DNA from: Vicingaceae bacterium
GTDB lineage: Bacteria; Bacteroidota; Bacteroidia; Flavobacteriales_E; Vicingaceae
DNA: 64,000 bases
Reading direction: 5' to 3'
NCBI GenBank assembly: GCA_037969435.1
Contig: JBBKXK010000014.1
Coordinates: 3,526 to 67,525, forward strand
The notes under the pieces were generated by a model. The model searched no databases. It saw nothing but the letters and a program-made list of their open reading frames with translations, and was not told the origin of the DNA. This document shows, in pieces, positions 12,320-48,621 of the stretch. A program made the translations under genes and the position numbers. Position 1 is the stretch's first letter, and each line of letters begins with the position of its first letter.

Positions 12320-12391
12320 TATTTTTTAGCTTAAATAACTTTTATCAAAATACGGGAATTTTTTTTTCGAAGTTTCAAATAAGATGTATTA

Positions 12392-16219: not shown

Positions 16220-16223
16220 TAAC

Positions 16224-18527: not shown

Positions 18528-18533
18528 TCCTTA

Positions 18534-19451: not shown

Positions 19452-19463
19452 TTTTTTAAGTTC

Positions 19464-20204: not shown

Positions 20205-20211
20205 AAATATG

Positions 20212-23028: not shown

Positions 23029-23044
23029 AAGTAGTTAGTTATGG

Positions 23045-26000: not shown

Positions 26001-26209
26001 GCGTTAGTAGTTACTGCATGCGATTCTTTATAAACATCTCCTCCAGAAGCAGAGCCTTGTCTTACTTCAATAACTACTGAAATTGCTTGAGAAGCTACCG
26101 GATTACCTGATAAATCTCGAGCTACAGCCTGATAATTTATTTTTTCTGGAGTTTGAGCATAAACTCCTAAACATAAAAACATTAGTATTAAAGTAATTTT
26201 TGTTTTCAT
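23045..26209 (-). CDS. Tail-fibre-like giant secreted protein B (1054 aa) with C-terminal Peptidase_S74-type intramolecular chaperone domain
   Basis: Signal peptide, shared N-module, short collagen-like 'GPTGAQGPQGIG', five GIG(T/V/A) shaft motifs. C-terminal 113 aa 'SDARLKKDIKPF...GIIAQELRKIAP...YLGVDNGAMTYMLINAIKEQQKMIEELKKEVELLKNK'. Confidence 0.9.
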   Translation of the reverse strand: MKTKITLILMFLCLGVYAQTPEKINYQAVARDLSGNPVASQAISVVIEVRQGSASGGDVYKESHAVTTNAFGLFTLEIGGGTLLGGAFNTISWGTSSYYLYIEVDGNPIGASQLLSVPYALYSKESLNGPTGAQGPQGIGINWLGTLSSAPATPNLNDAYYNSTTGQSFIWDGATWQILAQDGTAGSLTGGPGISVLANVISNTGDLDSTNELQDLSITGNTINITQGTGANISATTPSTGDYLYWNGINWVAQTVPANTDNQNLINGGKSGNNQTIDIQNGTGVTFSIADGDSLSTNEIQQLSFATPNLTLSNGGGTVNLSSLSGPTYTAGTGISIVSNVITNTMPDQTVAITGSGATTVSGTYPNFTIASTDNVNDADFDPSNEYNTGFAVNGLNLEITDGGGTRQVPMSSFADSDWIPNGIAIRNGNAGNVGIGVFTPTRKLHVEDNSTAFATYIQQGNTAGDGLSVYSNTSVSARTIFSAVGNASGLYVKGNSDVGIGTNVPTEKLDVNGQIRMRTGAVNGYIPVANASGVMTWTDPSTLALGSAWLVNGTDIYNGNAGQVGIGTTSPTFPLEVRTTTNVRGAYIETSGTNSASSKIGVTGIAINGLGTGDNKGGSFNASGGSSGDNIGVEGIAISGTAANIGVRGWSTAGTGNWAGFFGGGGANTGDVHIQDNLRIGTVSNSSASAKVYIHTPTTSNIYTSIEALNEYNGGSLMYGYYNRMIASGTGGMTGMWNYMTPSASSSSTVYGYRNLIQTGGNGPRYGLYSSIQSSGSGDMYGSYNSLDHDGTGDVYGFRLDASGSTTSGNVYGLYITGPLNMENAIVGNTGIGVLNPVNRLDVEGAAVIGGTYSGTITAPVNGLLVAGDVGIGATAGGTKLMVNETGTNPIFRAQLNGGTNFMVANNGNTALYYDVAPAYKLTLNTNSAAKPTSNVWTVASDARLKKDIKPFQGGLNDVLKINPVWFTYNGKAGMPNETGVGIIAQELRKIAPYMVNEWEYTSTNEETGESLGTEKYLGVDNGAMTYMLINAIKEQQKMIEELKKEVELLKNK
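25823..26158 (-). repeat. Direct repeat copy 2 (N-terminal module of fibre B)
   Basis: See the 22636-22971 entry. Same orientation, about 3.2 kb apart. Confidence 0.8.
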
Positions 26210-26222
26210 AATAATCGTTTTT

Positions 26223-29200
26223 TTAATTAGCGTAAACTAAATGTCCACTAAACCATGTGCCTGCAGAAGATTGTACACTTGTGCCTGCGGGAGCAGAGTT
26301 TACCCTTATATCAATGGTGTCGCCAGCAGCTAATCTCATTGTTGTAACAAATGTAATATTATTTGGTTGTCCTGATGTTAAATATGCTGTTTGCTCTTTG
26401 TTATCAAGTCCATTTTTTCTCAGGGTTACATTTAAAGATCCATTTGATAAACTAACGATAGCCATTACAGATAGATTAAAAGAATAAATACCATTAACAG
26501 GGGCAGTAAACACGCTAGTAGCAGAATTATAATTTGCACCATCATCAAAAAATACAGTGCCAAATTGTAAGGCTCCTAAACTTAATGAAGGTAAGCCAGA
26601 AACATGTGCTTCAAAAGCTACTTGTCTCGTTTTCCAAGTAGCAAAGCCAGAAGCATCAGAGGTTAAAATTTTACCTGCCCCTTCTGTTCCATCAGTTAAT
26701 TTAAAAGTTCCATTTACATCTAGTTTAGCTGAAGGAATACCTGTACCAATACCAATATTACCATTAGGCGCAATTCTCATTGCTTCATTTGATACTCCAA
26801 TTCCAATAGGGGTTGTATGAAACTCAAGATGAGATCCATGGGCGGTACTTCCAAAAGTTTCATCAGCAAAAGCTCTAATACTAACCGCTTCAGATAAATT
26901 AAAAGCATTATCCATACCTATAAACTCTAGTTTACCTAATCTATCTCCATTTTGAACTCCAGCAGGAACTGCTGCTGTTCCTCTAGAACGAATTAAAGCT
27001 AAGCTACTTCCATCGGAAACATTGTTATTAAATGATTGTGCTGCAATAATTGTCTGACCATCTTTAGCTACATGAAGGCTTACAATAGGGCTTGTTGTTC
27101 CTATACCCACATTAACTGAATTAGCTCCTATTCCACCAAGTACCAAACTATTATTAGCACTTACTACAGAATTGGCTCCAATTGCTGTAGCATTAGTTAA
27201 ATTTGCGATTCCTGCATCTGCTGATTTTCCAATAAAAGTATTGTTATTACCCGATGTGAGAGTTATTCCTGCATCTGCTCCAAAACTAGAATTATTGCTT
27301 CCTGTAGAGTTTTGAAGTGATGCTGTACCAAATGCTGAATTTCTGTTTCCAGTAGAATTAAGTCTTAATACTTCATAACCTAATGAACTATTAAAAACTC
27401 CAGTTGTATTATTCTGACTTGCTCTAAATCCAACAGCAGTATTACTGCCTCCGGTATTTAACCTCAATGCTTCTCTACCTATAGCTGTGTTGGTTCCCCC
27501 TGACACATTGGAAAGTAATGCTGCTGATCCTAAAGCAACATTTTCAACACCTGTTGTATTGGAATTTCCTGCATCATGACCAATGAAAGTATTCAAATTA
27601 TTTGTTAAATCATCATTAAGCCCTGCACCTTGTCCAATAAAAACGCTATTTCCAGAATTTATTACTTCAAACCTAGGCCCTATCATTGTAAAGTACTCTG
27701 CTGCAGTATATCCTGTGCTGTTTCCAAGATTAAAATGGATAACATCTTGATCCGGTGCTGCTTCTAAATTAATATATGTGTCTCCATCAGCATCTATAAT
27801 AGAAGTATCATTACTTGAACTAAATGATGGTGTCTGCCAACTAGCATTACCTGAAGCATCAGAGGTTAAAATTTTATTTGCCCCTGCTCCTGTTGGTATT
27901 AATAATCCAACTGGAAATTCAGCCCTACCATCATTTAATAATCTTAAAGCCTGAACATTAGTGGTTGTCCCATTCATTATTGTATTAAATATTATTTCAC
28001 TACCAAATGAGGAGCTTGTAAAGTTTTCAGTAGCTTTAGCATAAATTTGTGGTCCTCCTCCAAATCCAGAAGAATGGTGCCCTGGGAAAGCTATTTGTCC
28101 TATCAGGTCTCCACTAACAATTGCACCTCTATTGGGTGAGGTAAAATTATTTCTTGCTGCTACCAAAAGACCAGGTTGATTAAATCCTTCTGAAATTATC
28201 CCATTACCAACAGTATTGTCATCCATAACATGAAAAGAACTTAGTGGGGGTGCAATATTGTTAATCCCTACTTTACTATCTCCATAAACTATGAAAGGAA
28301 TTTTATTAGTAACACCATTATTATATGCAATACTATAGCCAGAAGTTGCATCAACTGCATTAAGACCTGCTTCAACAATCCAATATTTGTTAGCAACTGT
28401 GTTAGTATGTTTAATCCTAGAAAATCCAGAAGATGTTTCGTGTAACTGTAAAGTTGGAATTGCGGTAGTGGAAGAATTTGCAATATGTAGTTTACCAGAA
28501 GCAGGGCCACCTATACCAACCTTAGTGGCAGTAATGCTCATTTCTCCTGATGTGGCAGAAATAATACTTCCAGTTGTTGTCCCACCATTTTGAAGTTTTA
28601 TACCTGCACTATTACTGCCAGTAGCATTAACATCAATTGTAGCCCCAAAAAAACCTGCTCTTTCAAATAAGGCTATAGTAGTTATGGCTGGATTTCCCCC
28701 TGACACATGAAATTTGTGAGAAGGTAAAGTTCCAACACCTACATTTCCTGTATTAAAATAAATATCTGGTGAGTTACTTTGCCATAAACTCCCACCTAAA
28801 CCTAAAGAATTTGGGTTTGTCCATTTCGCTTGTCCAAAACCATCATTAGCTAAAATCCAATTTGTACTATCCTTATTATTTCCAATTAAATAAAGTGAAT
28901 CTGTTACAAATGTTCCTTGATTAATATTAATAATGTTTCCTGTAGGTGATATATTAAAAATGGAGTCTGAATTATTATAAACAAAATCTTGAGCAACATT
29001 ACTTATAACCCTAGCATATGATGTTATTGTACTATCTGAACTAATGCCAATATGCCCTCCGTTTATATTATTACTTATTCCTAACAACTTTTGAGCTGGA
29101 TCTAATGCGATAATTGCAGTGTCTGTTCCTGATAAAAAAATTGTTCCAATTGTAGCCCCAGGGTTTGTATTAGATATCCCTATTATTGATGCTCCAGGAT

Positions 29201-30017
29201 TATTCCCTGTAAAACTTGCAATTATTGAATCTGAAGAGTTAATCGTTAATTTATGAACAGGTGTAGAAGTACCGACTCCAACATTACCGACAACATAATC
29301 AATACCTTGTGCATTTGTATTCCATAAACCACCACTTGAACTTGGCAAAACAACAAACCCTCCATTAGTTAAAAATATAGTATCATTTGAAATGCTTAAT
29401 GTTTGTAGCTCGTTGGTTGCTGAAGTATCATTATTATTCGCAGAGCCATCTAAACCATTACATATATAATATTGAATATCTCTTTCTAATGGTTGTAATA
29501 TGTTATCATCATTGTCATCCACTCCCATATATATTAGATAACCTCCATTTGGACAATTAATGCCTACAGGTTCTGCTACTGAATCAGCTAAATTTGCATG
29601 TCCATTTGCTCCAGGCATACCGCTTGCAGCAGTTTTTGCATGAAGCGCATAAGGCACAGATAATAATTGAGTGCCTGTCATTACGTCCCCATTTATTGTA
29701 ACTCTTAAATAATATATTCCTAAACTCCAATTTATTCCAGAAAAAGTTCCAAAAACAGGAGTTCCTCCTCCAATCTCAGCGGTAAATAATCCGAATTGAT
29801 TTGTAGATGACACATAAGTTTCACTATAAATAAGTGTGCCCGATGAGGATCCTTGTAAAACATCAAAAACTATATTTACAGGAGTTGTAATCAATGGATT
29901 CCCTGATAAATCTCTAGCAACTGCTTGATAATTTACAAGCTGTGGTGCTTGAGAAAAAGCATTATTGGTTAACAGGAGACTTACTGTTAAAACTAATAGT
30001 GTGAAAATATTCTTCAT
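26223..30017 (-). CDS. Tail-fibre-like giant secreted protein A (1264 aa) with C-terminal gC1q-like domain
   Basis: Signal peptide, diverged copy of the shared N-module, four GxGT shaft motifs, two 'KILTSDASG.A(S/T)W' motifs, an NxAxG repeat block. C-terminal 'VAFEAH...FFDDGANYNSATSVFTAPVNGIYSF...LRKNG...LAAGDTIDIRV...WFSGHLVYAN'. Confidence 0.9.
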   Translation of the reverse strand: MKNIFTLLVLTVSLLLTNNAFSQAPQLVNYQAVARDLSGNPLITTPVNIVFDVLQGSSSGTLIYSETYVSSTNQFGLFTAEIGGGTPVFGTFSGINWSLGIYYLRVTINGDVMTGTQLLSVPYALHAKTAASGMPGANGHANLADSVAEPVGINCPNGGYLIYMGVDDNDDNILQPLERDIQYYICNGLDGSANNNDTSATNELQTLSISNDTIFLTNGGFVVLPSSSGGLWNTNAQGIDYVVGNVGVGTSTPVHKLTINSSDSIIASFTGNNPGASIIGISNTNPGATIGTIFLSGTDTAIIALDPAQKLLGISNNINGGHIGISSDSTITSYARVISNVAQDFVYNNSDSIFNISPTGNIININQGTFVTDSLYLIGNNKDSTNWILANDGFGQAKWTNPNSLGLGGSLWQSNSPDIYFNTGNVGVGTLPSHKFHVSGGNPAITTIALFERAGFFGATIDVNATGSNSAGIKLQNGGTTTGSIISATSGEMSITATKVGIGGPASGKLHIANSSTTAIPTLQLHETSSGFSRIKHTNTVANKYWIVEAGLNAVDATSGYSIAYNNGVTNKIPFIVYGDSKVGINNIAPPLSSFHVMDDNTVGNGIISEGFNQPGLLVAARNNFTSPNRGAIVSGDLIGQIAFPGHHSSGFGGGPQIYAKATENFTSSSFGSEIIFNTIMNGTTTNVQALRLLNDGRAEFPVGLLIPTGAGANKILTSDASGNASWQTPSFSSSNDTSIIDADGDTYINLEAAPDQDVIHFNLGNSTGYTAAEYFTMIGPRFEVINSGNSVFIGQGAGLNDDLTNNLNTFIGHDAGNSNTTGVENVALGSAALLSNVSGGTNTAIGREALRLNTGGSNTAVGFRASQNNTTGVFNSSLGYEVLRLNSTGNRNSAFGTASLQNSTGSNNSSFGADAGITLTSGNNNTFIGKSADAGIANLTNATAIGANSVVSANNSLVLGGIGANSVNVGIGTTSPIVSLHVAKDGQTIIAAQSFNNNVSDGSSLALIRSRGTAAVPAGVQNGDRLGKLEFIGMDNAFNLSEAVSIRAFADETFGSTAHGSHLEFHTTPIGIGVSNEAMRIAPNGNIGIGTGIPSAKLDVNGTFKLTDGTEGAGKILTSDASGFATWKTRQVAFEAHVSGLPSLSLGALQFGTVFFDDGANYNSATSVFTAPVNGIYSFNLSVMAIVSLSNGSLNVTLRKNGLDNKEQTAYLTSGQPNNITFVTTMRLAAGDTIDIRVNSAPAGTSVQSSAGTWFSGHLVYAN

Positions 30018-37816: not shown

Positions 37817-38740
37817 ATGGAAAAACAAGAAAATAACTCAATAACTGAACAAAAAGGATCAAAAACTAATAAGTTTTTGGTTGTTGTAACCATCCTTTTA
37901 TTAGGATTTTGTGGGTATTTGATTTGGCAAAATTTAGAATTGCAAAAACATTTGAATGATAAAGAAATTCAATATGTTGAGGTTTCTGGTGAAAGAGATC
38001 AAGTTAAAAGTGAATTAGAGAGTATGCTTGCACAGTACCAAGAAATGGAAACTAATAATCAGCAATTAAGTGAAGAATTAGCCGCAGAAAAAGCAAAAAT
38101 AGAGGATTTACTAAAAAAAGCGAAAGGAAAAGACTGGTCTATTTATAAACTTAGAAAAGAAACAGAAACGCTAAGAACAATTATGAAAGGTTATGTTGTT
38201 CAAATAGACTCCCTAAATCAAATAAATGGTAGGTTAACAGAAGAGAACAATGTAGTAAAAACAGAGCTGTCTTCAGAAAAAAATAAAACTAAAAACCTTA
38301 CCGAGAAAAATGAAAATTTATCAGACATGGTAACTGTAGCTTCTTATTTAAAAACAGTTGGACTAACTGCTTATGCGGTAAAAGTTAAAAGTGATAACAC
38401 TGGAAAAGAAACTGATAGAGCAAAAAAAACTGGAAAACTAAGAACTGATTTTACAATACAGAAAAACAGCATTACTATACCTGGCAATAAATGGATTTAT
38501 GTAAGAATATTAACTCCAGATGGTAGAGTTTTATCCGAAAAAACAGATGACAGCAACAAGTTTGACTTTAACGGAGTTAGGGGTTTATACTCTTCTAAAA
38601 AGCAAATCAACTATAAAAATCAAGAAGTTTCATTATCAATCGATTGGGTTAAAACCGATGAATTTCCTGTTGGGGAATATAATGTGGAAGTTTATGCCGA
38701 TGGTGTAGATATAGGAAAAACCAAATTTACGCTAAAATAA
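37817..38740 (+). CDS. Membrane-anchored coiled-coil protein with C-terminal beta-rich domain (hypothetical)
   Basis: TM 'FLVVVTILLLGFCGYLIW', then about 130 aa of heptad-like E/K/L/Q-rich sequence and a beta-rich C-terminus. Confidence 0.65.
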   Translation: MEKQENNSITEQKGSKTNKFLVVVTILLLGFCGYLIWQNLELQKHLNDKEIQYVEVSGERDQVKSELESMLAQYQEMETNNQQLSEELAAEKAKIEDLLKKAKGKDWSIYKLRKETETLRTIMKGYVVQIDSLNQINGRLTEENNVVKTELSSEKNKTKNLTEKNENLSDMVTVASYLKTVGLTAYAVKVKSDNTGKETDRAKKTGKLRTDFTIQKNSITIPGNKWIYVRILTPDGRVLSEKTDDSNKFDFNGVRGLYSSKKQINYKNQEVSLSIDWVKTDEFPVGEYNVEVYADGVDIGKTKFTLK

Positions 38741-38755
38741 ACTCCTTATTTTACT

Positions 38756-38763
38756 TAGTTTTG
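38756..38763 (+). promoter_or_regulatory. -7 box TAgtTTTG
   Basis: Matches TAnnTTTG, 28 nt upstream of the ATG at 38792. Confidence 0.3.
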
Positions 38764-38791
38764 CCGCTTATTTAAAAAAAGCAACTTAAAA

Positions 38792-39751
38792 ATGGTAAAA
38801 AAAATAGTCTTTATTACTATCCTATTCCTTTTTACAGGAAACGTTATAGCACAAACTACTGAAGCTGAAGATAAATTAAAAAAACAAGCTGCTGACTCTC
38901 TTGATGGATGGAAAACTGGAGGTGTTATTTCAATTAATTTAACCCAAGTTAGTTTAACAAATTGGGCTGCAGGTGGCAATAATTCTATTTCTGTAAATGG
39001 AATATTAAGTTTGTTTGCAAACCTTAAAAAAGGCAATTCCACTTGGGATAATTCTTTAGATTTATCTTATGGAATGCTACAACAGGGCAATGAATCTATG
39101 AGAAAAACTGATGACAAAATAGATTTTACATCTAAATATGGTCAAAAAGCTTTTAAAAATTGGTATTATGCTGGTTTAGTAAATTTTAAATCACAAATGA
39201 CTCCTGGGTATAACTATCCTAACGATTCAACAAAAATTTCAGATTTTATGGCTCCTGCATATACTTTAGTAGCAATTGGTATGGATTATAAGCCAAGTGA
39301 TGTTTTTACATTATTTATATCTCCCCTTACAATGAAAACAACCTTTGTAAACGATCAAACTTTGGCTGACGCTGGAGCCTATGGTGTTGACCCTGCTGAG
39401 TATGATGATTTTGGAATGTTACTTAAATCTGGAAAAAATATCCGATCTGAGTACGGGGGTTATTTAAGGGCACAATTTAAAAAAGACATAATGGAGAATA
39501 TTAATCTTCAATCTAAATTGGAATTATTTTCTAACTATGCAGAAAACCCAGATTATGTTGATGTTAACTGGGAGGTATTAATTGCAATGAAAGTAAATAA
39601 ATATATTTCTGCAACATTATCAACTCAATTAATTTATGACCACGACATTGACATTGGTGTAGACACTAATGGTGATGATGTTATTGACAAAGTAGGCCCA
39701 AGGACTCAGTTTAAGGAAGTCTTAGGTGTAGGATTAGCTTATAAGTTTTAA
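38792..39751 (+). CDS. DUF3078-like outer-membrane beta-barrel protein (recalled family)
   Basis: Signal peptide, 'WKTGGVISINLTQVSLTNWAAGGNNSISVNG', alternating beta pattern, terminal 'GVGLAYKF'. Confidence 0.7.
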   Translation: MVKKIVFITILFLFTGNVIAQTTEAEDKLKKQAADSLDGWKTGGVISINLTQVSLTNWAAGGNNSISVNGILSLFANLKKGNSTWDNSLDLSYGMLQQGNESMRKTDDKIDFTSKYGQKAFKNWYYAGLVNFKSQMTPGYNYPNDSTKISDFMAPAYTLVAIGMDYKPSDVFTLFISPLTMKTTFVNDQTLADAGAYGVDPAEYDDFGMLLKSGKNIRSEYGGYLRAQFKKDIMENINLQSKLELFSNYAENPDYVDVNWEVLIAMKVNKYISATLSTQLIYDHDIDIGVDTNGDDVIDKVGPRTQFKEVLGVGLAYKF

Positions 39752-39774
39752 CTTACAGTCCAAATAAAAATTAA

Positions 39775-39802
39775 CCCAAAGAAATTCTCTTTGGGTTTTT
39801 TG
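39775..39802 (+). terminator. Rho-independent terminator
   Basis: cccaaaga (39775-39782) / tctttggg (39788-39795), then tttttt. Confidence 0.7.
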
Positions 39803-39850
39803 TTTTATACATTTACACCTATAACGCAACCTATATAAAAGTAATGCAAG

Positions 39851-39876
39851 GCAACCAAAAATATAAACTAACGTCT
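39851..39876 (+). promoter_or_regulatory. ECF-type promoter GCAAC-N16-CGTCT (site 1, upstream of the ECF sigma gene)
   Basis: GCAAC at 39851-39855, 16-nt spacer, CGTCT at 39872-39876. ATG at 39889. Confidence 0.6.
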
Positions 39877-39888
39877 TTGAAATAAATA

Positions 39889-40461
39889 ATGGATTCTAAT
39901 GATCAGCATATTTTAGATGACATAGTTAAAAAATGTGTCAAAGGTGATCGTAAGGCTCAGCATGAACTGTATAAAAGATTTTACAGTAAAATGATGGGGG
40001 TGTGTTATAAGTATTCTAACAATGCTGAAGATGCACGAGATTTATTACAAGATGGATTTGTAAAAGTTTATAGTAACATACACAAATACAATTTTGAAGG
40101 TTCTTTAGAAGGTTGGATTAGAAGAATAATGGTAAATACTGCCATTGACCATTTTAGAAAAAACAAAAATGTTTATATGGTTAATGATGAAGATGACTAT
40201 ATTCTTGAAAACAGCAAGGTAGAAAGTGCTGACTCTATTTATAGCCAATTTGGTGAAAAAGTAATAATGGAAGCCATACAATCTTTAAGCCCTGCTTACA
40301 AAACTGTTTTTAACTTAAATGTTATTGAAGGTTATCAGCACAAAGAAATAGCTGAAAAATTAAACATAAGTGAAGGCACATCGAAATCAAACCTTGCTAA
40401 AGCAAAGCAAAATTTAAAAAAAATATTAGAAGAAAAAGAAGCACGATTAAGACATGAATAA
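39889..40461 (+). CDS. ECF-subfamily RNA polymerase sigma-70 factor
   Basis: Region 2 'ARDLLQDGFVKVY...EGWIRRIMVNTAIDHFRK'. Region 4 'YKTVFNLNVIEGYQHKEIAEKLNISEGTSKSNLAKAKQNLK'. Confidence 0.9.
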   Translation: MDSNDQHILDDIVKKCVKGDRKAQHELYKRFYSKMMGVCYKYSNNAEDARDLLQDGFVKVYSNIHKYNFEGSLEGWIRRIMVNTAIDHFRKNKNVYMVNDEDDYILENSKVESADSIYSQFGEKVIMEAIQSLSPAYKTVFNLNVIEGYQHKEIAEKLNISEGTSKSNLAKAKQNLKKILEEKEARLRHE

Positions 40462-41716
40462 TTTTGAAAAAATAATACGCGACAAAGTAGAACAATTTGA
40501 GGTTCCATACAATGATGCTCATTGGGCAGAAATGGAAGGAAAATTAAACTCAATTCGTACTGCAAAAATTAGAAAAAACATTTTAACTGCTGTTGGAATA
40601 ATAGCTGTTTTAGGTGTTTCTAGTTATTTACTAATTACTAATAATGGTGTTGAAACAACTAACAAAACTGTTGTTACTAATAACCTAAACAAATCTAGTG
40701 TTTCTGAGGTAAATAATATAGATGCTTCAACAAACGCTAATAATAACTTTAATAAAACAGTAAATACAACTGTTGAACAAAATAATTCTGAAAAAACGAA
40801 TACTCCTATTAATGAAACCGAAATTAATCTAAATAACGAAATAACTCCAAATATAATCCCTGAAAAATCAACCACTATTGAAAACAATGAAGTTAACAAA
40901 TCAACTGTTGAAATAAATGCTGATTTTATTGTTTACAACAATACTATTTGCTTGGGAGAAACTGTCAGTTTTGAGTCTTTAGAAAAAAATTCACCTGTAT
41001 CTTATACCTGGGATTTTGGAGATGGAGCAACATCAAACAAAGCAAACCCAAGGCATACCTACAACGATGATGGAATATATTCTGTAACACTTACATTAAA
41101 AAATAGACAATCAGGAAAAGAAGTAAAATCTAAACAATCGAATGTGGTAAATATCTTACCTGCTCCTAATGTTGATTTTTCATATGATGAATTATCTTTA
41201 AAACAAGATAACAACAAGTTAAAATATCCTTATACTTCTTTTGAGATTAAAGGAATTGATGCAAACTATTCTTATAGCTGGGAATTTGGTAATGGTAAAA
41301 ATGCTAAAACTAAAAACACTAAAACCATTTACGAAAAAGCAGGAAACTATAAAGTAGCATTAATTGCAAAAACTGAAAATGGATGTTCAAGTATCACAAC
41401 CAAAAATGTTGTTGTGAAAAATGGAATTGATTTATATGCCCCAACTGGATTTAAACCGAATACCGCAATAAGTACCGAATCTGAAACATTTATACCAATG
41501 GCATTACTAGGGTGGGAAGTTCAGTTTACTATGACAATAGTAGACAATTCTGGTAAAACTGTTTACAAAACATCTGACCGAAATGCTCCTTGGAATGGTA
41601 AAATAAACAATACTGGTCAATTGTTAAACGAAGGTGTTTATGTTTGGCAAGTAATTGTTTATGATGCTGAAGGAGATCAACATGCACATAGAGGAAATGT
41701 TACACTATTAAAATAA
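40454..41716 (+). CDS. Anti-sigma-like single-pass membrane protein with two PKD-like domains and a type-B T9SS CTD-like C-terminus
   Basis: Overlaps the sigma gene by 8 nt. About 44-aa cytoplasmic head, TM 'ILTAVGIIAVLGVSSYLLI', N/T-rich linker. PKD 'YTWDFGDGATSNKANPRHTYNDDGIYSVTLTLKN' and 'YSWEFGNGKNAKTK...GNYKVALIAKT'. C-terminus 'APWNGKINN...GVYVWQVIVYDAEG...GNVTLLK'. Confidence 0.8.
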   Translation: MNNFEKIIRDKVEQFEVPYNDAHWAEMEGKLNSIRTAKIRKNILTAVGIIAVLGVSSYLLITNNGVETTNKTVVTNNLNKSSVSEVNNIDASTNANNNFNKTVNTTVEQNNSEKTNTPINETEINLNNEITPNIIPEKSTTIENNEVNKSTVEINADFIVYNNTICLGETVSFESLEKNSPVSYTWDFGDGATSNKANPRHTYNDDGIYSVTLTLKNRQSGKEVKSKQSNVVNILPAPNVDFSYDELSLKQDNNKLKYPYTSFEIKGIDANYSYSWEFGNGKNAKTKNTKTIYEKAGNYKVALIAKTENGCSSITTKNVVVKNGIDLYAPTGFKPNTAISTESETFIPMALLGWEVQFTMTIVDNSGKTVYKTSDRNAPWNGKINNTGQLLNEGVYVWQVIVYDAEGDQHAHRGNVTLLK

Positions 41717-41741
41717 CTCAATAATATTATACAAACAACAG

Positions 41742-41767
41742 GCAACGATAAAATGATTATACCGTCT
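41742..41767 (+). promoter_or_regulatory. ECF-type promoter GCAAC-N16-CGTCT (site 2)
   Basis: GCAAC at 41742-41746, 16-nt spacer, CGTCT at 41763-41767. ATG at 41797. Confidence 0.6.
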
Positions 41768-41796
41768 AAGTTGTAAATTTATTTAAGAAACTCTTT

Positions 41797-44358
41797 ATGA
41801 AAAAATTAATTTTATTAGCTACAATAACTGTTTTAACAGTTTCATCAATATTTGCCCAAACTAATGTTTTGGTTATTGATTATAACAATAATTTTTCTAG
41901 TGACCAATCGAATAATCAAAGTCGTATTTACAATAGATTGTTAACTACACAAACTAGTGTTGTTAGAGTTAACGCAATACCTGCAACTATTAATCAAGCA
42001 ACCTATCAACAGGTTTGGATTTTTGGAAATATGGGAGTTCCTAGTCCTGCTACTTTAAACCCTATTATTGCTTACATGAACAATGGTGGTGCTGTTTATA
42101 TTCAATCAGAAGTAAGTTGTTGCAACAACCCTGCTGCTTTTGCCGATCAATTAATTGATGCAACAGTAACTGTTGGGGGTTCTATATCTCACAATATAAT
42201 GAAATCAGGAAATTATGAGTATAAACTATATTCTCCTTTACTATGCACACCATTTCTAAGTCATGGTGCTGCTGTTAGACCATTTGTAGGAGCAACACAA
42301 CAAAACATTCTTTATGAAGCCACTCCTACTTGTGGAAGCGCAATTACCACAGGAGATGTAGTAGGAGTAAAATTTAAAGCCTGTGATATGATTACTGGTG
42401 AAGGTGCTTTAGTAGTTAATGGTGATTTTAATATTTTCCCAGTAGGAGGAAGCTGTAGTAGTGTTGGTATTTTAGGAACCCCTAATAACTTTCAAGTAAT
42501 AGATATAATCGCTGACATGTTGCCAGCTATGGCATGTAGCCAATTAACAAATCCTGGTGGAGGCACACTAACTTTAACAGCTAATCCTCAATATTTTTGT
42601 GGATCAACTCAATTAGGATGGAATTATACTGGAAATCCAGGTTGTCCTATACTTGGATGTGATACAACTACACATTATAAATGGACTGTTGTATCAGGTG
42701 AACCTATGAATGTTCCTGTTAACTTTAGTTGTGATACCTGTCCTTATCCTATTGCATCTCCAAGTATTATTACTACTTACACTTTAGCTATCACTAAAGG
42801 AGATACAAACCTTAACTGCCCTAGAACATCAACCGTTATACCTATTACAGTGTATCCTGGTGCCCAAACTACAAATGCTGGTTTAGATACTACAATTTGT
42901 TTTGGTGATTTTGTTACTATTGGAGGTTCTCCAACAGCTACAGGATCCGGCCCTTTTACTTATAGTTGGACACCTATAACAGGATTAAACAATCCAACTT
43001 TAGCTAACCCTATTTGTACGCCTCCAGCTGTAGGTTCTATAACTTATATTGTACAAGCTAATGGTACTTGTACTGGTTATGACACTATAACTGTAAATGC
43101 AATAAGTTGTTGTGTAGTAACAATTACTGACACAACCAACATAAATGCAAAATGTTTTGGATCATGTGACGGATCAATAAGCCTTACAACAACAGGTGGT
43201 GCAACACAATTTAGTATTGATAATGGAATAACTTGGCAAGCAAGTAATACTTTTAATGGGTTATGTGCTGGTACTTATACAATATTAGCTTCCGATGGAA
43301 ATTGTTCTGATGCAGTAACTGTTACTATTTACGAACCTACACAAATAACCATACCTAATGTTGTTACTGATGCCAGTTGTTTTGGCGGTAGTGATGGACA
43401 AATAGTAGTCGCCCCTCAAGGTGGTACACCGGCTTACAACTACAGTTGGTCTGTACCAGGGCAAGGAAACTCTCCTACAGCTAATAATTTATCAGCAGGT
43501 ATAGTAACGGTAACTGTTACTGATGCAAATGGTTGTACTGAAGATTCTACTTTTACTATAAACGAGCCAGGCCCTGTTGCTTTTGGATCGTTTGACGCAG
43601 ATGTTTATTCTGGTTGCTCTCCTTTAGATGTTGAGTTTACTAATACTACAAACCCTACATTATACTCAAGTTTTTCTTTCAATCTAGGAAATGGAGTAAA
43701 CTCTTCTAGCACGCCAGTTACTACAACATATACTACTCCCGGAACTTATGATGTAACATTAACTGTTACAGATAATAATGGATGTATTGGTGTTCTAGTT
43801 CAGCCCGCATTTATTACTGTTTACCCTGATCCAATAGCTAATTTCACAACTTGGCCAAGTAGAGTTACAGTATTTGACCCTACAGTTAATTTTACGGATT
43901 TATCTCAATCTAATATTGTAACTTGGGATTGGGACTTCAATGGCCTAGGTAACAGTTCTATTCAAAATCCAAGCTTTAGATTTGCAGAAGATACTGCTAC
44001 ATATAATGTAGAGTTAATAGTTGAAGATAATAATGGATGTAAAGACACTATTACTAAGAGTGTTGAAATTAAAGGAGAGTATGCTGTATATGTTCCTAAT
44101 GCCTTTACTCCTGACCAAGATGGGTTAAATGAAGGCTTTCATCCAGATGGTTTCGGTATTTCTGAATTTGGTTATTCGTTTACAATATTTGATAGATGGG
44201 GTGAAGTAATCTTTAAATCAAATAAAAGATTCGATCCATGGAATGGAACATACAAAGGAAAATTAGTAGAGAATGGTGTTTATATCTGGTCTCTTAACTT
44301 TAAAGACTTAGATGGTTTAGACCATAAAAAAGTAGGTCATCTTACCATTATTAAGTAA
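41797..44358 (+). CDS. Large T9SS type-B cargo (853 aa): N-terminal alpha/beta-like domain, Cys-rich module, SprB repeats, PKD domains, type-B CTD
   Basis: Signal peptide. SprB-repeat patterns 'CFGSCDGSISLTTTGGA' and 'CFGGSDGQIVVAPQGGTPAYNYSW'. PKD 'YDVTLTVTDNNGC' and 'WDWDFNG...YNVELIVEDNNGC'. CTD 'FTPDQDGLNE...IFDRWGEVIF...PWNGTYKG...GVYIW...GHLTIIK'. Confidence 0.9.
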   Translation: MKKLILLATITVLTVSSIFAQTNVLVIDYNNNFSSDQSNNQSRIYNRLLTTQTSVVRVNAIPATINQATYQQVWIFGNMGVPSPATLNPIIAYMNNGGAVYIQSEVSCCNNPAAFADQLIDATVTVGGSISHNIMKSGNYEYKLYSPLLCTPFLSHGAAVRPFVGATQQNILYEATPTCGSAITTGDVVGVKFKACDMITGEGALVVNGDFNIFPVGGSCSSVGILGTPNNFQVIDIIADMLPAMACSQLTNPGGGTLTLTANPQYFCGSTQLGWNYTGNPGCPILGCDTTTHYKWTVVSGEPMNVPVNFSCDTCPYPIASPSIITTYTLAITKGDTNLNCPRTSTVIPITVYPGAQTTNAGLDTTICFGDFVTIGGSPTATGSGPFTYSWTPITGLNNPTLANPICTPPAVGSITYIVQANGTCTGYDTITVNAISCCVVTITDTTNINAKCFGSCDGSISLTTTGGATQFSIDNGITWQASNTFNGLCAGTYTILASDGNCSDAVTVTIYEPTQITIPNVVTDASCFGGSDGQIVVAPQGGTPAYNYSWSVPGQGNSPTANNLSAGIVTVTVTDANGCTEDSTFTINEPGPVAFGSFDADVYSGCSPLDVEFTNTTNPTLYSSFSFNLGNGVNSSSTPVTTTYTTPGTYDVTLTVTDNNGCIGVLVQPAFITVYPDPIANFTTWPSRVTVFDPTVNFTDLSQSNIVTWDWDFNGLGNSSIQNPSFRFAEDTATYNVELIVEDNNGCKDTITKSVEIKGEYAVYVPNAFTPDQDGLNEGFHPDGFGISEFGYSFTIFDRWGEVIFKSNKRFDPWNGTYKGKLVENGVYIWSLNFKDLDGLDHKKVGHLTIIK

Positions 44359-44375
44359 TCCTTTTTTTTAATGCA

Positions 44376-44417
44376 AAAATCCTTCTTATCTATTTGATAC
44401 AGAGGGATTTTTGTTTT
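44376..44417 (+). terminator. Hairpin + T-run after the 853-aa cargo gene
   Basis: aaaatccttc (44376-44385) / gagggatttt (44402-44411), one G-U pair, 16-nt loop, then ttgtttt. Confidence 0.5.
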
Positions 44418-44437
44418 AAAAAATATTAATTTTTAAT

Positions 44438-44463
44438 GCAACCATTAAAATAGAAATGCGTCT
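44438..44463 (+). promoter_or_regulatory. ECF-type promoter GCAAC-N16-CGTCT (site 3)
   Basis: GCAAC at 44438-44442, 16-nt spacer, CGTCT at 44459-44463. ATG at 44543. Confidence 0.6.
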
Positions 44464-44542
44464 TTCATACAAAGAAATAAACTAACTAATTATTTCTTAT
44501 TTACTATCTTTAAAATCTAAATTATTAACTTAAAAAATTATT

Positions 44543-46075
44543 ATGAAATTCTTAAAATCAACAGCATTTTTATTTGTGCTTTTATCTTTTTTTGCGGTAA
44601 AAAAAAGTTACGCATGCCACCCTTTGCCTTTGGTTAATTTTAACCAAATTCAGTATATACCTGGTACAGGTTTGCAAATTAGAGCTGCTTCTGATTCACC
44701 TACCTGTGGATGTGCCGCCTATTGGTTAGACATGGAAATAAGATGTAATGGAGACATTATGAATGGAAATGGTTTATTTGCAGGTGTTTGGGATTCAATA
44801 TACTGTTTCCCTTTTTACCAATCTGCTCAAATGTTAAAACCAAATTGTGTTATTCAAGACTATCCATGGGTAACCGTTCCTGACAGTATTCTTTGTCCTG
44901 GTCAAACTTATCAATACAGAATAAGAGAAAATCACAATTTTTCTGTTGGTCCTTGGACTCCAATTATGAATTACACAATGCCCGGAACTCTTGATACAAA
45001 TTTAGGCCATTTGACAATAACTGCTGATAACAGTTCTGCTAGCCCAGTTTTCTTTTGTGGAGCAACTCAATTAGGATGGACTTTCAATGCAGGAACAGGG
45101 TGTATATCAACTGGATGTAATACAGACACTACTTACCAATGGATAGTTATCTCTGGAGAACCTATTAATGTGCCTGTGAACTTTAGTTGTGACACTTGCC
45201 CTTACCCTATTGCTTCACCAAGCATCACTACTACTTATGCCTTAAATATGTTTATTGGTGATACCAATGCTTGTGGTCACGGTGTTTATACCCAAACCCC
45301 TATAACAGTTTCGCCATTACCTTATCCAACTAATGGAATAATTAGTGCTGTCCCTGATTGCAAAAGTAATGTTCAATTAAATATTACGGGAGCATTCGAC
45401 ACTCTTCAATGGCAATCATCTATAAACAGCGGTCCTTTTAACGACTTAATTGGTGAAGACTCCAGTAATACTTTTCAATCAAATGTAGCGCCAGGGACTT
45501 GTTATCGAGTTAAAATATCTACACAATGTGCCACCATTTATTCCGATACAATCTGTCCAACCATTTTAGCCGGACCAACTGCTGCTTTTTCAACAAACCC
45601 AGCAATACAAAGTTTAAATGGTGTACCTATAACATTTACAGATAACTCTAGTGGTAATATAATAGCATGGGAATGGACGTTTGGTGATGGAGATAGCTCC
45701 AACATACAACACCCAGTTCATACTTACCAAAACCAAGGATTATACACTATTCAATTAATTGTAACTGATGCTAATGGTTGCCAAGATACCATTACAATGA
45801 GTTATTTAATTGTATCTCAAGTAATTGTTCCAAACATAATTACACCTAATGGAGATGGTCAAAATGATAACCTTGTCTTTAAAAATTTAGAATTTTACGA
45901 CAATCACCTACAAGTTTTTAACCGTTGGGGCACAATGATTTTTGAAAAAGAAAATTATCAAAACGATTGGAATGGAAACGGAATAACAGAAGGAACCTAC
46001 TTTTTTATTCTTGAGATCAAAAAAGATGATAATGAAGTTGAACTTCATAAAGGAGCAATAAACGTTTTAAGGTAA
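44543..46075 (+). CDS. T9SS type-B cargo (510 aa) sharing a Cys-rich module with the 853-aa protein; PKD domain; type-B CTD
   Basis: Signal peptide. 'FCGATQLGW...NVPVNFSCDTCPYPIASPSI'. PKD 'WEWTFGDGDSSNIQHPVHTYQNQGLYTIQLIVTDANGC'. CTD 'ITPNGDGQNDNLVF...VFNRWGTMIF...GTYFFILEI...GAINVLR'. Confidence 0.9.
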   Translation: MKFLKSTAFLFVLLSFFAVKKSYACHPLPLVNFNQIQYIPGTGLQIRAASDSPTCGCAAYWLDMEIRCNGDIMNGNGLFAGVWDSIYCFPFYQSAQMLKPNCVIQDYPWVTVPDSILCPGQTYQYRIRENHNFSVGPWTPIMNYTMPGTLDTNLGHLTITADNSSASPVFFCGATQLGWTFNAGTGCISTGCNTDTTYQWIVISGEPINVPVNFSCDTCPYPIASPSITTTYALNMFIGDTNACGHGVYTQTPITVSPLPYPTNGIISAVPDCKSNVQLNITGAFDTLQWQSSINSGPFNDLIGEDSSNTFQSNVAPGTCYRVKISTQCATIYSDTICPTILAGPTAAFSTNPAIQSLNGVPITFTDNSSGNIIAWEWTFGDGDSSNIQHPVHTYQNQGLYTIQLIVTDANGCQDTITMSYLIVSQVIVPNIITPNGDGQNDNLVFKNLEFYDNHLQVFNRWGTMIFEKENYQNDWNGNGITEGTYFFILEIKKDDNEVELHKGAINVLR

Positions 46076-46082
46076 ATATAAC

Positions 46083-46110
46083 AAGGAGCTTCAATAATTT
46101 GAAGCTCCTT
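46083..46110 (+). terminator. 12-bp hairpin terminator
   Basis: aaggagcttcaa (46083-46094) / ttgaagctcctt (46099-46110), 4-nt loop, 7 nt after the stop. Confidence 0.6.
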
Positions 46111-46185
46111 TCATTAACAACCACTTGTTTAAACTTAAAATTAAATTTAAGTATAGCTGTTTTAAATAATTTACTTTTGTAAGTG

Positions 46186-46458
46186 ATGAAAACTGACCTT
46201 TCAAACAATAAAATTAAATCACAAAAATTGGTTGTTAAACCATTCTTATCTATTAATGATTTAAGAGATAAGGATTTTAATAATCATGAATTAACACACC
46301 AAGAAAGATTAGCCTTAAAGAACTTTGATCGCTATAGAATAAATGAATTAAATAAACAAACTACAGAAAATTTATTCAATCAAAAATACTTGCATTTACA
46401 AGTAATGGCCAACCTCCACCCCTATAATGAGTTTTTAAAAGAATCTTATTTCTTGTAA
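46186..46458 (+). CDS. Hypothetical 90-aa protein
   Basis: ORF with an ATG at 46186 and a TActTTTG -7 box at 46172-46179, which implies a leaderless or very short leader. No recognisable motifs. Confidence 0.45.
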   Translation: MKTDLSNNKIKSQKLVVKPFLSINDLRDKDFNNHELTHQERLALKNFDRYRINELNKQTTENLFNQKYLHLQVMANLHPYNEFLKESYFL

Positions 46459-46503
46459 AAAGAAATATTTGTTATTTTTACAAGAAACATATCTTAATTA
46501 ATT

Positions 46504-47586
46504 ATGAAAAAATTATATACTTTTTTGATTGGTGCTTTTATTACTAGTACTGTAATTATTGCTCAACCTGTTTTAACTTCTGCTAATTTTACCCTCTCCA
46601 TTGGAGATACTCAAATGTTTCATGTGGCAGATTCTAATACATCTGTAGACCCAACTGTTGGGGCAAATGTTACTTTTAATTATGGTGGGATGCTTGGTTA
46701 TGGTGCAACTCAAACACAATATGTTATAGATCCAACTACAACTACTTATACTGGAGACTTTCCTTCAGCAACCTATGCAGATACTACTGGTGGATCTCCT
46801 ATTAACACTAATTACACTAAAGTTGAAGCAACTGACAGCTTAACAAACATTGGCTTTATTGTTGATTTACCAACCTACGGAACTGTAAAAGTTAGGTATA
46901 ATACAGACCCTGAAATTACTATGAAGTTTCCTTTTAATTTTGGAGATAATTATTCTGATAATTATTCTGGTGTTTTTACAGTTCAATCTCAAAACACTAA
47001 TGGAGAAGGAACAGCTATGGTAAGTGCTGATGCTTGGGGAACTTTAGTTTTGCCTATGGGTGTAAGTATTGATTCTGTAATAAGAATAAGAACAGTTGAA
47101 CATTTAGTTACTGATACAATTGTTATTCCTTTTCCTCCTATTACCATTTTACCTGTAGAAATTGATGCTGAATATATTAACTATTACAAACCTAGTTTGA
47201 GTAAATTTCCTTTATTATCATTTATTTCAGGAACATACACACAGGACAATAACACGTTAGATTCTTCTACAGTTGTAATTTCTCAATACCCTATGTATGG
47301 AGTAAATGTGAATGAATTAGAAACCAATTTAATTGATTTTAATTTATACCCAAACCCTACTAACAAAGAAAACGTAACATTAAGTTTAGAGTTAGAAAAA
47401 AATTCAACTTTAAAAATCGAATTACTTAATAAATTAGGTCAACACGTAAACACTATTTATAACGGAAATTCTTCCGTTGGGATAAACAAATTTGAAATTA
47501 ACACTAGCAGCTTATCTGCTGGAATTTATTTTGTTAATACGACTATAAACGGTAATACTGCGACAAAAAAGTTAGTTGTTCAATAA
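46504..47586 (+). CDS. Secreted protein with T9SS type-A (Por_Secre_tail) C-terminal sorting domain
   Basis: Signal peptide. C-terminal 'FNLYPNPTNKENVTLSLELEKNSTLKIELLNKLGQHVNTIYNG...LSAGIYFVNTTINGNTATKKLVVQ'. Confidence 0.85.
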   Translation: MKKLYTFLIGAFITSTVIIAQPVLTSANFTLSIGDTQMFHVADSNTSVDPTVGANVTFNYGGMLGYGATQTQYVIDPTTTTYTGDFPSATYADTTGGSPINTNYTKVEATDSLTNIGFIVDLPTYGTVKVRYNTDPEITMKFPFNFGDNYSDNYSGVFTVQSQNTNGEGTAMVSADAWGTLVLPMGVSIDSVIRIRTVEHLVTDTIVIPFPPITILPVEIDAEYINYYKPSLSKFPLLSFISGTYTQDNNTLDSSTVVISQYPMYGVNVNELETNLIDFNLYPNPTNKENVTLSLELEKNSTLKIELLNKLGQHVNTIYNGNSSVGINKFEINTSSLSAGIYFVNTTINGNTATKKLVVQ

Positions 47587-47602
47587 CAACAAATAACACA
47601 AT

Positions 47603-47637
47603 AAAAAAAGGGAGTTAATAATTAACTCCCTTTTTTT
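47603..47637. terminator. Bidirectional hairpin terminator (A-run / stem / T-run)
   Basis: aaaaaaa-gggagttaa...ttaactccc-ttttttt, centred at about 47620. Confidence 0.7.
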
Positions 47638-47672
47638 ATAACATTTTATATAGTTTTTACGTTCTACATATT

Positions 47673-47786
47673 ATGACTACACTTATCCATAAAATAGAAC
47701 ATTTCGAGTTATGGTTTAACAAGCATTTTGGTTGGTTTTTTATAAATGGACGAAAACAAAGTGAGAAACTTAACACAAATAGATAA
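47673..47786 (+). CDS. Candidate 37-aa small ORF (below ORF-track cutoff)
   Basis: My translation is MTTLIHKIEHFELWFNKHFGWFFINGRKQSEKLNTNR*. It fills the gap between the terminator and the convergent membrane-protein gene. No promoter motif verified. Confidence 0.25.
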   Translation: MTTLIHKIEHFELWFNKHFGWFFINGRKQSEKLNTNR

Positions 47787-47787
47787 A

Positions 47788-48621
47788 TTAATCTAAAATA
47801 GGTTTTGATTCAAATGATAATATTTTTCCAATTGGTTCAAAATTTATAAACGTTAATTCCATTTTATCATCTTTATATCTTCCATTAAATAATTGCTCAG
47901 TCCCTCTCATTATAAATACTGAATCTTCAGTTGAATAATAATATATCCCCGTCAATTTTTCATCTTTAATTTTTAACTCAATCCCGCCCTGAGGCATAAA
48001 GTATATTTGATCATTTGACTCTAATGAATCCCAACGGTTTGGATTATTCTCTAACCAATCTCCCACTAAATTGTTTTGTTCAAGAGAGTAATTATAATAT
48101 TTTTCACCAAAATACCCAATCCCAACTATAAGTATCAATGACATTATTATCGCTTCTTTTTTAGAATTAATTTTTTCGGGAATTAATTTTTTAAATACCG
48201 TCAAAATTATTCTCCAATTAAAAGCAAGCAAAATTAGATTCCCAAATAATAACAATAAAGATATTTTTATGGTTTGATTCCATAAATCTAAGCCAAAATT
48301 AACCAATACAATATTTAAAATTATTGGGAAAAGAAATAATGCTCCTAATAAATAAGTTTTACGATACATCAATAAAATTGCTCCACCCAATTCAAAACAA
48401 CCTAAAAGAATTTCAAACCATGAGTTGTAGCTTAAAAATCGCCAAGCAATTAAAGATCCTGGTATTTCAGAAAGGGGAACTTCCCAATAAGAAAAAGGAT
48501 ATATGGTAAATTGTGTTCTAAATATTTTGGTGAGGGCATATGGTAAAAGAGCAATAGCTAAAGAAAACCTAGTGGGGAAAATAATTATCCACTCTTTCAA
48601 ATTATTTGATTTAAAATACAT
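47788..48621 (-). CDS. Integral membrane protein (4-5 TM) with C-terminal soluble beta-rich domain, hypothetical
   Basis: Hydrophobic segments through about aa 185, then a soluble tail. ATG at 48621 shares one nucleotide with the ALDH TGA stop (GTGATG context), so translational coupling is likely. Confidence 0.65.
   Translation of the reverse strand: MYFKSNNLKEWIIIFPTRFSLAIALLPYALTKIFRTQFTIYPFSYWEVPLSEIPGSLIAWRFLSYNSWFEILLGCFELGGAILLMYRKTYLLGALFLFPIILNIVLVNFGLDLWNQTIKISLLLLFGNLILLAFNWRIILTVFKKLIPEKINSKKEAIIMSLILIVGIGYFGEKYYNYSLEQNNLVGDWLENNPNRWDSLESNDQIYFMPQGGIELKIKDEKLTGIYYYSTEDSVFIMRGTEQLFNGRYKDDKMELTFINFEPIGKILSFESKPILD

Follow-up and report, generated by a model that had tools for sequence, protein, structure and literature searches.

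Three candidate ECF-type promoters before a sigma factor operon and two T9SS type B cargo genes in a Vicingaceae bacterium

How Bacteroidota choose among their many adhesins secreted via their type IX secretion system (T9SS) is, to our knowledge, little understood, and the links between this system and extracytoplasmic function (ECF) sigma factors of which we know concern machinery genes and not cargo. The question is raised by a locus of a Vicingaceae bacterium (GenBank assembly GCA_037969435.1, contig JBBKXK010000014.1) in which genes for an ECF sigma factor of 190 amino acids (aa) and for a 420-aa membrane protein are followed by two genes for secreted T9SS cargo proteins of 853 and 510 aa. 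A preliminary description, made from the sequence alone, had noticed the bipartite word GCAAC-N16-CGTCT before the sigma gene and before each cargo gene, and had read it as the promoter of a compact sigma regulon of type B cargo. In this study, we report the analysis of this word in the surrounding 64,000 nucleotides (nt) of the contig (positions 3,526 to 67,525; hereafter the window, in whose numbering all coordinates are given) and in related loci, which are designated by the letter L and a number. Sequence comparison makes it likely that RNA polymerase recognises the three sites, called P1, P2 and P3, as promoters when it bears the adjacent sigma factor, which would be positively autoregulated and would co-induce two orphan type B adhesins.

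A pattern search found exactly three exact matches of GCAAC-N16-CGTCT in the window (Table 1), all on the forward strand, all intergenic and ending 12, 29 and 79 nt before the start codons of the sigma, 853-aa and 510-aa genes, respectively. Positions, gaps and the absence of the full motif elsewhere had all been given correctly in the preliminary description, the last of them from inspection by eye. Nor is the motif frequent at random positions, the mean being 0.01 matches per dinucleotide shuffle of the window with none of 100 shuffles reaching three. When one mismatch was permitted, a single extra match was obtained, intragenic and on the reverse strand, and relaxation to N15-18 and CGTC added one match, antisense within the 853-aa gene. 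The spacers and flanks of P1, P2 and P3 are mutually unrelated in sequence; therefore, the sites are not recent duplicates, and such an origin was ruled out.

In addition, a position-weight matrix built solely from sigma-upstream sites of other loci was run on the window. It placed P1, P3 and P2 at ranks one to three (30.0, 22.6 and 21.4 bits), the best score over 30 shuffles being 19.5 bits. The site at the fourth rank (43594-43617, reverse strand, GCAACC-N15-CGTC, 20.5 bits) lies antisense inside the 853-aa gene and was treated as chance and not as a fourth promoter, because it barely exceeds the shuffle maximum and has no counterpart in the relatives that cover the region (in L156 no reverse-strand site reaches 12 bits, and in L075 none reaches 17). 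The matrix gave no site upstream of the neighbouring gene for a protein with a type A C-terminal domain (CTD), which starts at 46504, or of its orthologues, and none at the other T9SS cluster of the window (12392-30017), including the PorP/SprF gene that is the window's only T9SS component gene.

The 190-aa product was confirmed as the ECF sigma factor that had been proposed. It matches Sigma70_r2 (62.7 bits, residues 27-93), Sigma70_r4_2 (57.3 bits, residues 126-176) and TIGR02937 (108.5 bits against a cutoff of 42.9), contains only regions sigma-2 and sigma-4, and falls within the approximately 170-200 aa expected of the class. No named NCBIfam equivalog or subfamily reached its cutoff, the best being TIGR02985 (100.2 against 126.4 bits), and sigma_PG0214 scored 83.6 against 130. 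A protein search of species genomes with the sigma factor gave 72 loci, 10 of them orthologous (Vicingaceae/Flavobacteriales metagenome-assembled genomes, 74-91% identity), and an alignment of the orthologous sigma factors brought 80 further metagenome loci with 45-91% identity. Within 130 nt of the sigma start, the pattern G[CG][AG]AC-N15-17-CGT[CAT] was present in 76 of 77 distinct upstream regions compared with 0.45% of shuffled regions, and the strict form GCAAC...CGTC in 55 of the 77 compared with 0.026%; the sole exception to the former is a contig that starts inside the sigma gene. The consensus of these sites is a-G-GCAAC-C, spacer, CGTC-T-T, with a spacer of 16 nt in 57 and of 15 nt in 16 of 75 distinct sites, and the distance from CGTN to the ATG is invariably 8-20 nt across the family. 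It must be noted that the more distant ECF genes returned by the same scan (L012-L034 and others, from Saprospiraceae, Cytophagales and further groups) had neither the motif nor the partner protein. The motif therefore tracks this sigma family, being near-universal among the homologues and absent at more distant ECF genes. Since CGTCT of P1 ends 12 nt before the sigma ATG, the usual distance from the −10 element to the transcription start would leave a leader of about 5-7 nt, and the P1 mRNA is predicted to be nearly leaderless.

Two further elements were observed around the sigma-upstream site. About 20 nt upstream of the −35 element, a box is conserved in orthologues of at least 74% sigma identity, TTACTTTCACTTTAAT, with the form ACATTTACACCTATAA in the window (approximately 39800-39850; 5420-5452 in L002), and in several orthologues an inverted repeat, GTTGC-N5-GCAAC, overlaps the −35 element. 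They could represent a second regulatory site or a basal promoter.

The closest relatives of the locus are three metagenome contigs (L154, L155 and L156) with the same flanking genes and a partner protein 71-73% identical to that of the window. P1, P2 and, where the contig reaches, P3 are kept at the same positions in all three: P1 is unchanged in L154 and L155 and has a single altered spacer base in L156, the changes in P2 are restricted to the spacer, and P3 of L154 has about 9 of its 16 spacer bases changed with TGCAACC and CGTCTT intact. In L075, where another cargo gene intervenes, the orthologue of the 853-aa gene (70% identity) is 6.2 kb away from the sigma gene and despite this relocation has GCAAC-N16-CGTCT 55 nt upstream. 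A scan of 79 non-identical family loci (0.92 Mb) at a threshold of 17 bits revealed 14 extra sites, where approximately 2.4 were expected on both strands, and 13 of the 14 were on the sigma strand. Each of the sigma-strand sites examined is located 4-207 nt upstream of an ORF (open reading frame) with a signal-peptide-like N-terminus. According to Pfam, the products include SprB/PKD/CHU_C proteins (type B), FG-GAP/BACON proteins with type A sorting, collagen-repeat/Peptidase_S74 proteins and small secreted proteins. The proposal of a compact type B regulon thus holds within the 64-kb window and is too narrow for the relatives, whose motif also precedes type A, collagen-repeat and small secreted proteins; the regulon is therefore better termed one of secreted surface proteins, mostly T9SS cargo.

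Other observations in the relatives also concern this word and words like it. The collagen-repeat/Peptidase_S74 proteins of L100 (14036-17728) are preceded by the sigma motif with a 17-nt spacer, and the Peptidase_S74 genes of the window are without it. In L003, another bipartite word (TTAAGGGTA-N about 15-AATCGTTAT) occurs twice, at approximately 11950-11990 and 12370-12410, before small ORFs downstream of the partner gene, and a different ECF sigma factor may have promoters of this type.

With respect to the two cargo proteins, their earlier assignment to the T9SS type B class was borne out, as CHU_C and TIGR04131 scored above the curated cutoffs in both. The 853-aa protein reached 49.8 bits with CHU_C, 45.0 with TIGR04131 (cutoff 35; residues 766-852), 44.8 with SprB and 69.5 with PKD_4, and the 510-aa protein 78.1 with CHU_C and 38.7 with TIGR04131. 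Inspection of the translations by eye indicated Sec signal peptides at both N-termini (MKKLILLATITVLTVSSIFAQ... and MKFLKSTAFLFVLLSFFAV..., respectively). The two proteins have in common a module of 111 aa with 57% identity (BLASTP), and an orthologue of the 510-aa protein is present in L154. A cognate porP/sprF-like gene directly downstream is common, though not universal, for type B cargo; none lies there at this locus, where the cargo genes are followed instead by the second of them, an ORF of 91 aa and the gene of the type A CTD protein. For lack of such an adjacent gene, both proteins are regarded as orphan type B substrates in the sense of the cited work (PMC12618676).

The 420-aa protein encoded after the sigma factor is a putative single-pass membrane anti-sigma factor, to judge from its layout. 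It is composed of an N-terminal module (residues 1-42), a transmembrane (TM) helix (43-61), a disordered linker rich in Asn and Thr (62-150), two PKD domains (PKD_4, 95 bits in Pfam) and a C-terminal CHU_C-like domain. The preliminary description had listed the gene content as sigma, anti-sigma and two secreted proteins, and had overlooked this type B-like sorting domain of the anti-sigma candidate itself. Its CHU_C score equals the cutoff (27.0 bits, profile positions 28-85) and rises to 31.6 bits in a scan limited to the C-terminal 97 aa, and its TIGR04131 score is 17.8 bits against the cutoff of 35. The last 149 aa and the C-terminus of the 853-aa cargo can be aligned from end to end (31% identity, E 2e-19). 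PF13585 is precomputed on nearly all homologues, which in an alignment with bona fide type B domains keep FxPNxDGxNxxF, WNG, GxYxW and GxhxLhK; the borderline score of the window copy is due to the loss of the DGxN part. An AlphaFold2 model from 52 homologues (mean predicted local distance difference test score 73.5) has helices at 3-14 and 21-61, the hydrophobic stretch lying within the second, disorder at 62-150 and three confident beta domains. A search of the PDB with this model returned generic tandem PKD/Ig folds only, GhpA fragments being the best, and told nothing about the C-terminal domain or the N-terminal module. Residues 1-42 are the best conserved part of the family, with a majority-residue frequency of 0.68 against 0.25 for the linker, and contain no Cys. 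Neither a FecR domain nor a TonB-dependent transducer was found in the Pfam scans. Across the family loci, down to 45% sigma identity, a full-length homologue of the 420-aa protein follows the sigma gene.

When residues 1-65 were searched against 1.84 billion representative proteins, 120 proteins were obtained. In these, a module of approximately 35 residues (FExxIKxKhExFEVPYNxxxWxxMxxxL) is present singly or in tandem arrays of up to about 9 copies, always ahead of a hydrophobic helix; in P0129, up to about nine repeats take up approximately 290 residues before the TM helix. So long a repeated region before the helix argues against a cleavable signal peptide. The C-termini of the 79 representatives of at least 300 residues included 31 OMP_b-brl_2 barrels, 22 with PKD and CHU_C, and 5 PorP/SprF. 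The module gene directly follows an ECF sigma gene in all five contexts that could be read, a sixth contig starting too near the gene; of the five, two have a partner of the PorP/SprF type and one a partner of the barrel type, and on the other two contigs the partner is of a PKD/CHU_C type with five repeats. The proteins listed with the module are the homologues P0001-P0101 together with P0129, P0133, P0135, P0138 and P0141. In L157, a sigma factor 53% identical to that of the window is preceded by AGCAACC-N16-CGTCTT and followed by a PorP/SprF-type partner and then by a small type B lipoprotein. The distant sigma gene of L158 (49% identity), which has an outer-membrane-barrel-type partner, is without the motif; therefore, the motif does not extend to every sigma factor paired with the module. 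The recurrent linkage to ECF sigma genes is the main argument for the module being a sigma-binding (anti-sigma) domain, and it suggests, as far as gene order and domain content can, that the module proteins form an envelope-spanning signalling system tied to T9SS. No report of an anti-sigma factor with a T9SS CTD, a type B domain or PorP/SprF was found in the literature library consulted, which is incomplete; as far as we found, the pairing of this sigma family with partners bearing T9SS sorting domains or PorP/SprF barrels is an undescribed variant. The promoter type itself is a fresh member of a well-known class.

The interpretation of P1, P2 and P3 as ECF promoters is based on their sequence class, geometry, orientation and co-conservation. 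Promoters of this kind typically have AAC in the −35 element and CGT in the −10 element at a distance of about 16-17 nt, with which GCAAC-N16-CGTCT agrees. The class, which had been named correctly, is conserved before the sigma family and before orthologous cargo genes and matches validated promoters (PMC6767563). Position and co-conservation point to reading of the sites by this sigma factor and not by a paralogue, and we infer that the 420-aa protein binds it; the transcription start positions and the activating signal are predicted likewise. In the resting state, the conserved 42-residue cytoplasmic module of the 420-aa protein would probably keep the sigma factor at the inner membrane. 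An envelope signal would free it, so that the sigma/anti-sigma operon would be amplified through positive autoregulation at P1, and the two orphan T9SS type B adhesin-like genes, placed under the same sigma factor by P2 and P3, would be switched on. The terminators at 39773, 44372 and 46083 would bound the transcription units.

Several results weigh against this interpretation. Many relatives with the full 10-kb flank carry just the autoregulatory site and, in L075, the cargo gene adjacent to the sigma operon (1338 aa) lacks the motif, so the set of targets is variable between lineages. The predicted leader of P1 is unusually short, though consistent across the family given its CGTN-to-ATG distances, and the N-terminal module matches no known anti-sigma domain (zinc-binding HxxxCxxC, RskA, FecR or similar), residues 1-65 having no match in Pfam at E up to 10 and none in NCBIfam. 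Furthermore, promoters of the AAC/CGT (GCAAC/CGTC) type are common to several ECF groups and cross-recognition may occur, Bacteroidota having an average of 22.5 ECF sigma factors per genome (PMC7826278). In Streptomyces coelicolor most sigma-E targets are just partly dependent on sigE (PMC6767563), and in Flavobacterium psychrophilum several ECF sigma factors may share a single CGT-box motif (PMC9723704). On these grounds the sites could be genuine ECF-type promoters read mainly by one or more other ECF sigma factors of overlapping specificity, with the adjacent sigma not the main regulator of the cargo. We consider this unlikely, given that the motif is specific to this sigma family, being found at nearly all homologues down to 45% identity and absent at distant ECF genes, and that the extra sites are concentrated on the strand of the sigma gene, no further than 10 kb from it. 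Far less probable still is that the word is the binding site of a repressor or activator and the genes are transcribed from ordinary Bacteroidota sigma-A promoters. The inverted repeat over the −35 element and the further conserved box upstream of it would fit such a protein; however, the half-sites differ in sequence, are separated by a fixed gap of 15-16 nt with the geometry of the −35 and −10 elements of validated ECF promoters, and keep a strict orientation relative to the downstream gene (13 of the 14 extra sites on the gene strand). At P1 there is insufficient room for another promoter, and a scan of the region with the E. coli-type sigma-70 consensus gave no excess (49 sites compared with 49.1 expected), a scan that covers this type and not Bacteroidota sigma-A promoters (TTG/TAnnTTTG).

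The role of the 420-aa protein must also be considered. It might be an ordinary type B cargo of T9SS that is merely co-transcribed with a sigma factor controlled otherwise; it has no recognisable anti-sigma domain, its homologues are annotated in public databases as 'PKD domain-containing' or 'gliding motility-associated-like', and its C-terminal half is paralogous to the cargo C-terminus. This has a small probability in our view, because the 42 residues ahead of the hydrophobic helix are its most conserved part, the module repeats of relatives (about nine in P0129) are incompatible with a cleavable signal peptide, and the module directly follows an ECF sigma gene in five of five informative contexts, with a gene overlap of 8 nt here. 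A more ambitious proposal, speculative and rather doubtful at present, is that the sigma factor and the anti-sigma candidate constitute an undescribed envelope-spanning signalling device coupled to T9SS, in which engagement of the secretion machinery releases the sigma factor. The disordered linker of approximately 90 residues, long enough to span the periplasm, would present the sorting domain to the translocon or to a PorP/SprF shuttle, and in sister systems this module is joined to the shuttle-like barrel itself. Release of the sigma factor would then follow when the secretion apparatus engages, pulls or cleaves the anti-sigma candidate, and orphan type B adhesins would be made in step with the capacity for secretion or shuttling.

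Table 1. Coordinates of the predicted promoters, genes and terminators at the sigma factor locus (positions in the window).
Feature	Position	Strand	Remarks
Intrinsic terminator of the upstream DUF3078 gene	39773..39807	+	Stem-loop AACCCAAAGA...TCTTTGGGTT then TTTTTTGTTTT
P1	39851..39876	+	−35 GCAAC 39851-39855, 16-nt spacer, −10 CGTCT 39872-39876; predicted autoregulatory ECF-type promoter
ECF (group IV) sigma-70 factor, 190 aa	39889..40461	+	Sigma70_r2 and Sigma70_r4_2, TIGR02937
Putative membrane-anchored anti-sigma factor, 420 aa	40454..41716	+	Start overlaps sigma stop by 8 nt
P2	41742..41767	+	Exact match, 21.4 bits; predicted ECF-type promoter, 29 nt before the 853-aa cargo gene
Secreted adhesin-like protein, 853 aa	41797..44358	+	Signal peptide, SprB repeats, PKD domains, type B sorting domain
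Intrinsic terminator downstream of the 853-aa gene	44372..44419	+	Hairpin 44372-44415, −22.6 kcal/mol, z −7.5, then U-run
P3	44438..44463	+	Exact match, 22.6 bits; predicted ECF-type promoter, 79 nt before the 510-aa cargo gene
Secreted protein, 510 aa	44543..46075	+	Signal peptide, PKD domain, type B sorting domain
Hairpin closing the 510-aa transcription unit	46083..46110	+	−18.3 kcal/mol, z −7.8

The order of elements at the locus is terminator, P1, sigma and partner genes, P2, first cargo gene, terminator, P3, second cargo gene and hairpin, with terminator hairpins immediately preceding P1 and P3. The hairpin of the DUF3078 gene (39773-39797, −13.6 kcal/mol, z −4.0, followed by a U-run) shields the sigma operon from upstream read-through. 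The structure of the terminator downstream of the 853-aa gene is preserved in L154, where some paired positions are altered on both arms. The hairpin after the 510-aa gene has a weak U-tail on the forward strand, and the consensus scan lists it as terminator-like on the reverse strand only. No terminator was found between the stop of the anti-sigma-like gene and P2; therefore, read-through from P1 into the 853-aa gene is also possible. A search of Rfam at a permissive threshold over 38500-48000 gave a single sub-threshold chance match, so that no known RNA element is indicated in this region. The 79-nt leader of the 510-aa gene is approximately 85% identical to that of L154 and contains an A/U-rich hairpin of 9 bp (AAGAAAUAA...UUAUUUCUU, 44472-44500) whose folding energy is non-significant (z −1.5).

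Beyond the cargo genes, an ORF of 91-93 aa without a signal peptide (...INDLRDK...LQVMANL.P..EFLKE.Y) invariably separates the type A CTD gene (46504-47586 in the window) from the variable cargo genes. It lies at 46183-46458 on the forward strand of the window, at about 12815-13083 in L007, at 18966-19247 in L075 and at 6543-6821 in L154, with no motif upstream. The separate T9SS cluster at 12392-30017 is of the classical type B kind and is encoded on the reverse strand, with large surface proteins, a CHU_C protein, PorP/SprF and an OmpA-like protein. At 19464-23028 (reverse strand), upstream of the PorP/SprF gene (18534-19451) and a gene for an OmpA/TPR protein, a 938-aa ORF and a 266-aa CHU_C ORF overlap by 53 nt in different frames, and a frameshift or a sequencing error seems to have divided a single type B cargo gene here. 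A C1q domain and a Peptidase_S74 chaperone domain like that of phage tail fibres are present in the large surface proteins at 23045-30017 (reverse strand). The 1275-aa protein at 12392-16219 (reverse strand) combines Reg_prop/Y_Y_Y sensor propellers with adenylate/guanylate cyclase and HD domains, an unusual architecture for signalling, beside the T9SS cargo cluster.

With regard to the use of these results, the word aGGCAACC-N16-CGTCTT is sharply defined and widely conserved, and can serve for regulon prediction in genomes of the group. At this locus, a dedicated sigma factor would control orphan type B adhesins. The results also indicate a family of membrane proteins linked to sigma genes, in which the outer part is a T9SS sorting domain, PorP/SprF or another outer-membrane barrel. 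Should these proteins prove to be anti-sigma factors that sense secretion, there would be a direct and testable feedback between the secretion system and transcription.

Autoregulated ECF promoters of the GGCAACC-N16/17-CGTCTT type are known from sigma-M of Bacillus subtilis. In S. coelicolor, the sigma-E promoters of hrdD, sco2974 and cwg have GGCAACC...CGTCTT and were S1-mapped or transcribed in vitro (PMC6767563), and they share with the motif of the window the same −35 and −10 words at the same spacing. The principle is also alike, with an own promoter before the ECF gene, a co-transcribed membrane anti-sigma factor and targets at the envelope or surface. The locus differs from it in belonging to Bacteroidota (Vicingaceae-like Flavobacteriales), in a sigma factor below all named NCBIfam equivalog cutoffs, in a leader that is nearly absent, and in predicted targets that are T9SS-secreted surface proteins and not cell-wall enzymes. 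An ECF sigma factor is likewise tied to T9SS in Porphyromonas gingivalis, where the CTD protein PorA feeds into T9SS signalling through PorXY-SigP (PMC7712824), and in F. psychrophilum, where the SM6 class of promoters with a CGT-box (−10) includes gldN, porU and a sigma/anti-sigma pair (PMC9723704). Those systems control genes of the secretion machinery, whereas here the motif precedes cargo genes and no machinery gene in the window. SigP, in turn, works with a two-component system, while the partner here is a membrane protein with a sorting domain of its own; PorA may be taken as a loose precedent for a CTD protein in T9SS signalling. For the orphan type B substrates of F. johnsoniae (PMC12618676), a link to an ECF sigma factor is not described in the papers found, and, with respect to the PorP/SprF shuttles of that organism, the window's only PorP/SprF gene belongs to another cluster. 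Finally, the logic proposed here would be the same as that of FecI/FecR, in which a single-pass inner-membrane protein that reaches an outer-membrane partner holds an ECF sigma factor, a functional and speculative comparison. Unlike in FecI/FecR, the periplasmic part here is of the PKD-PKD-type B CTD kind, or in relatives PorP/SprF or another barrel, carried on the same polypeptide.

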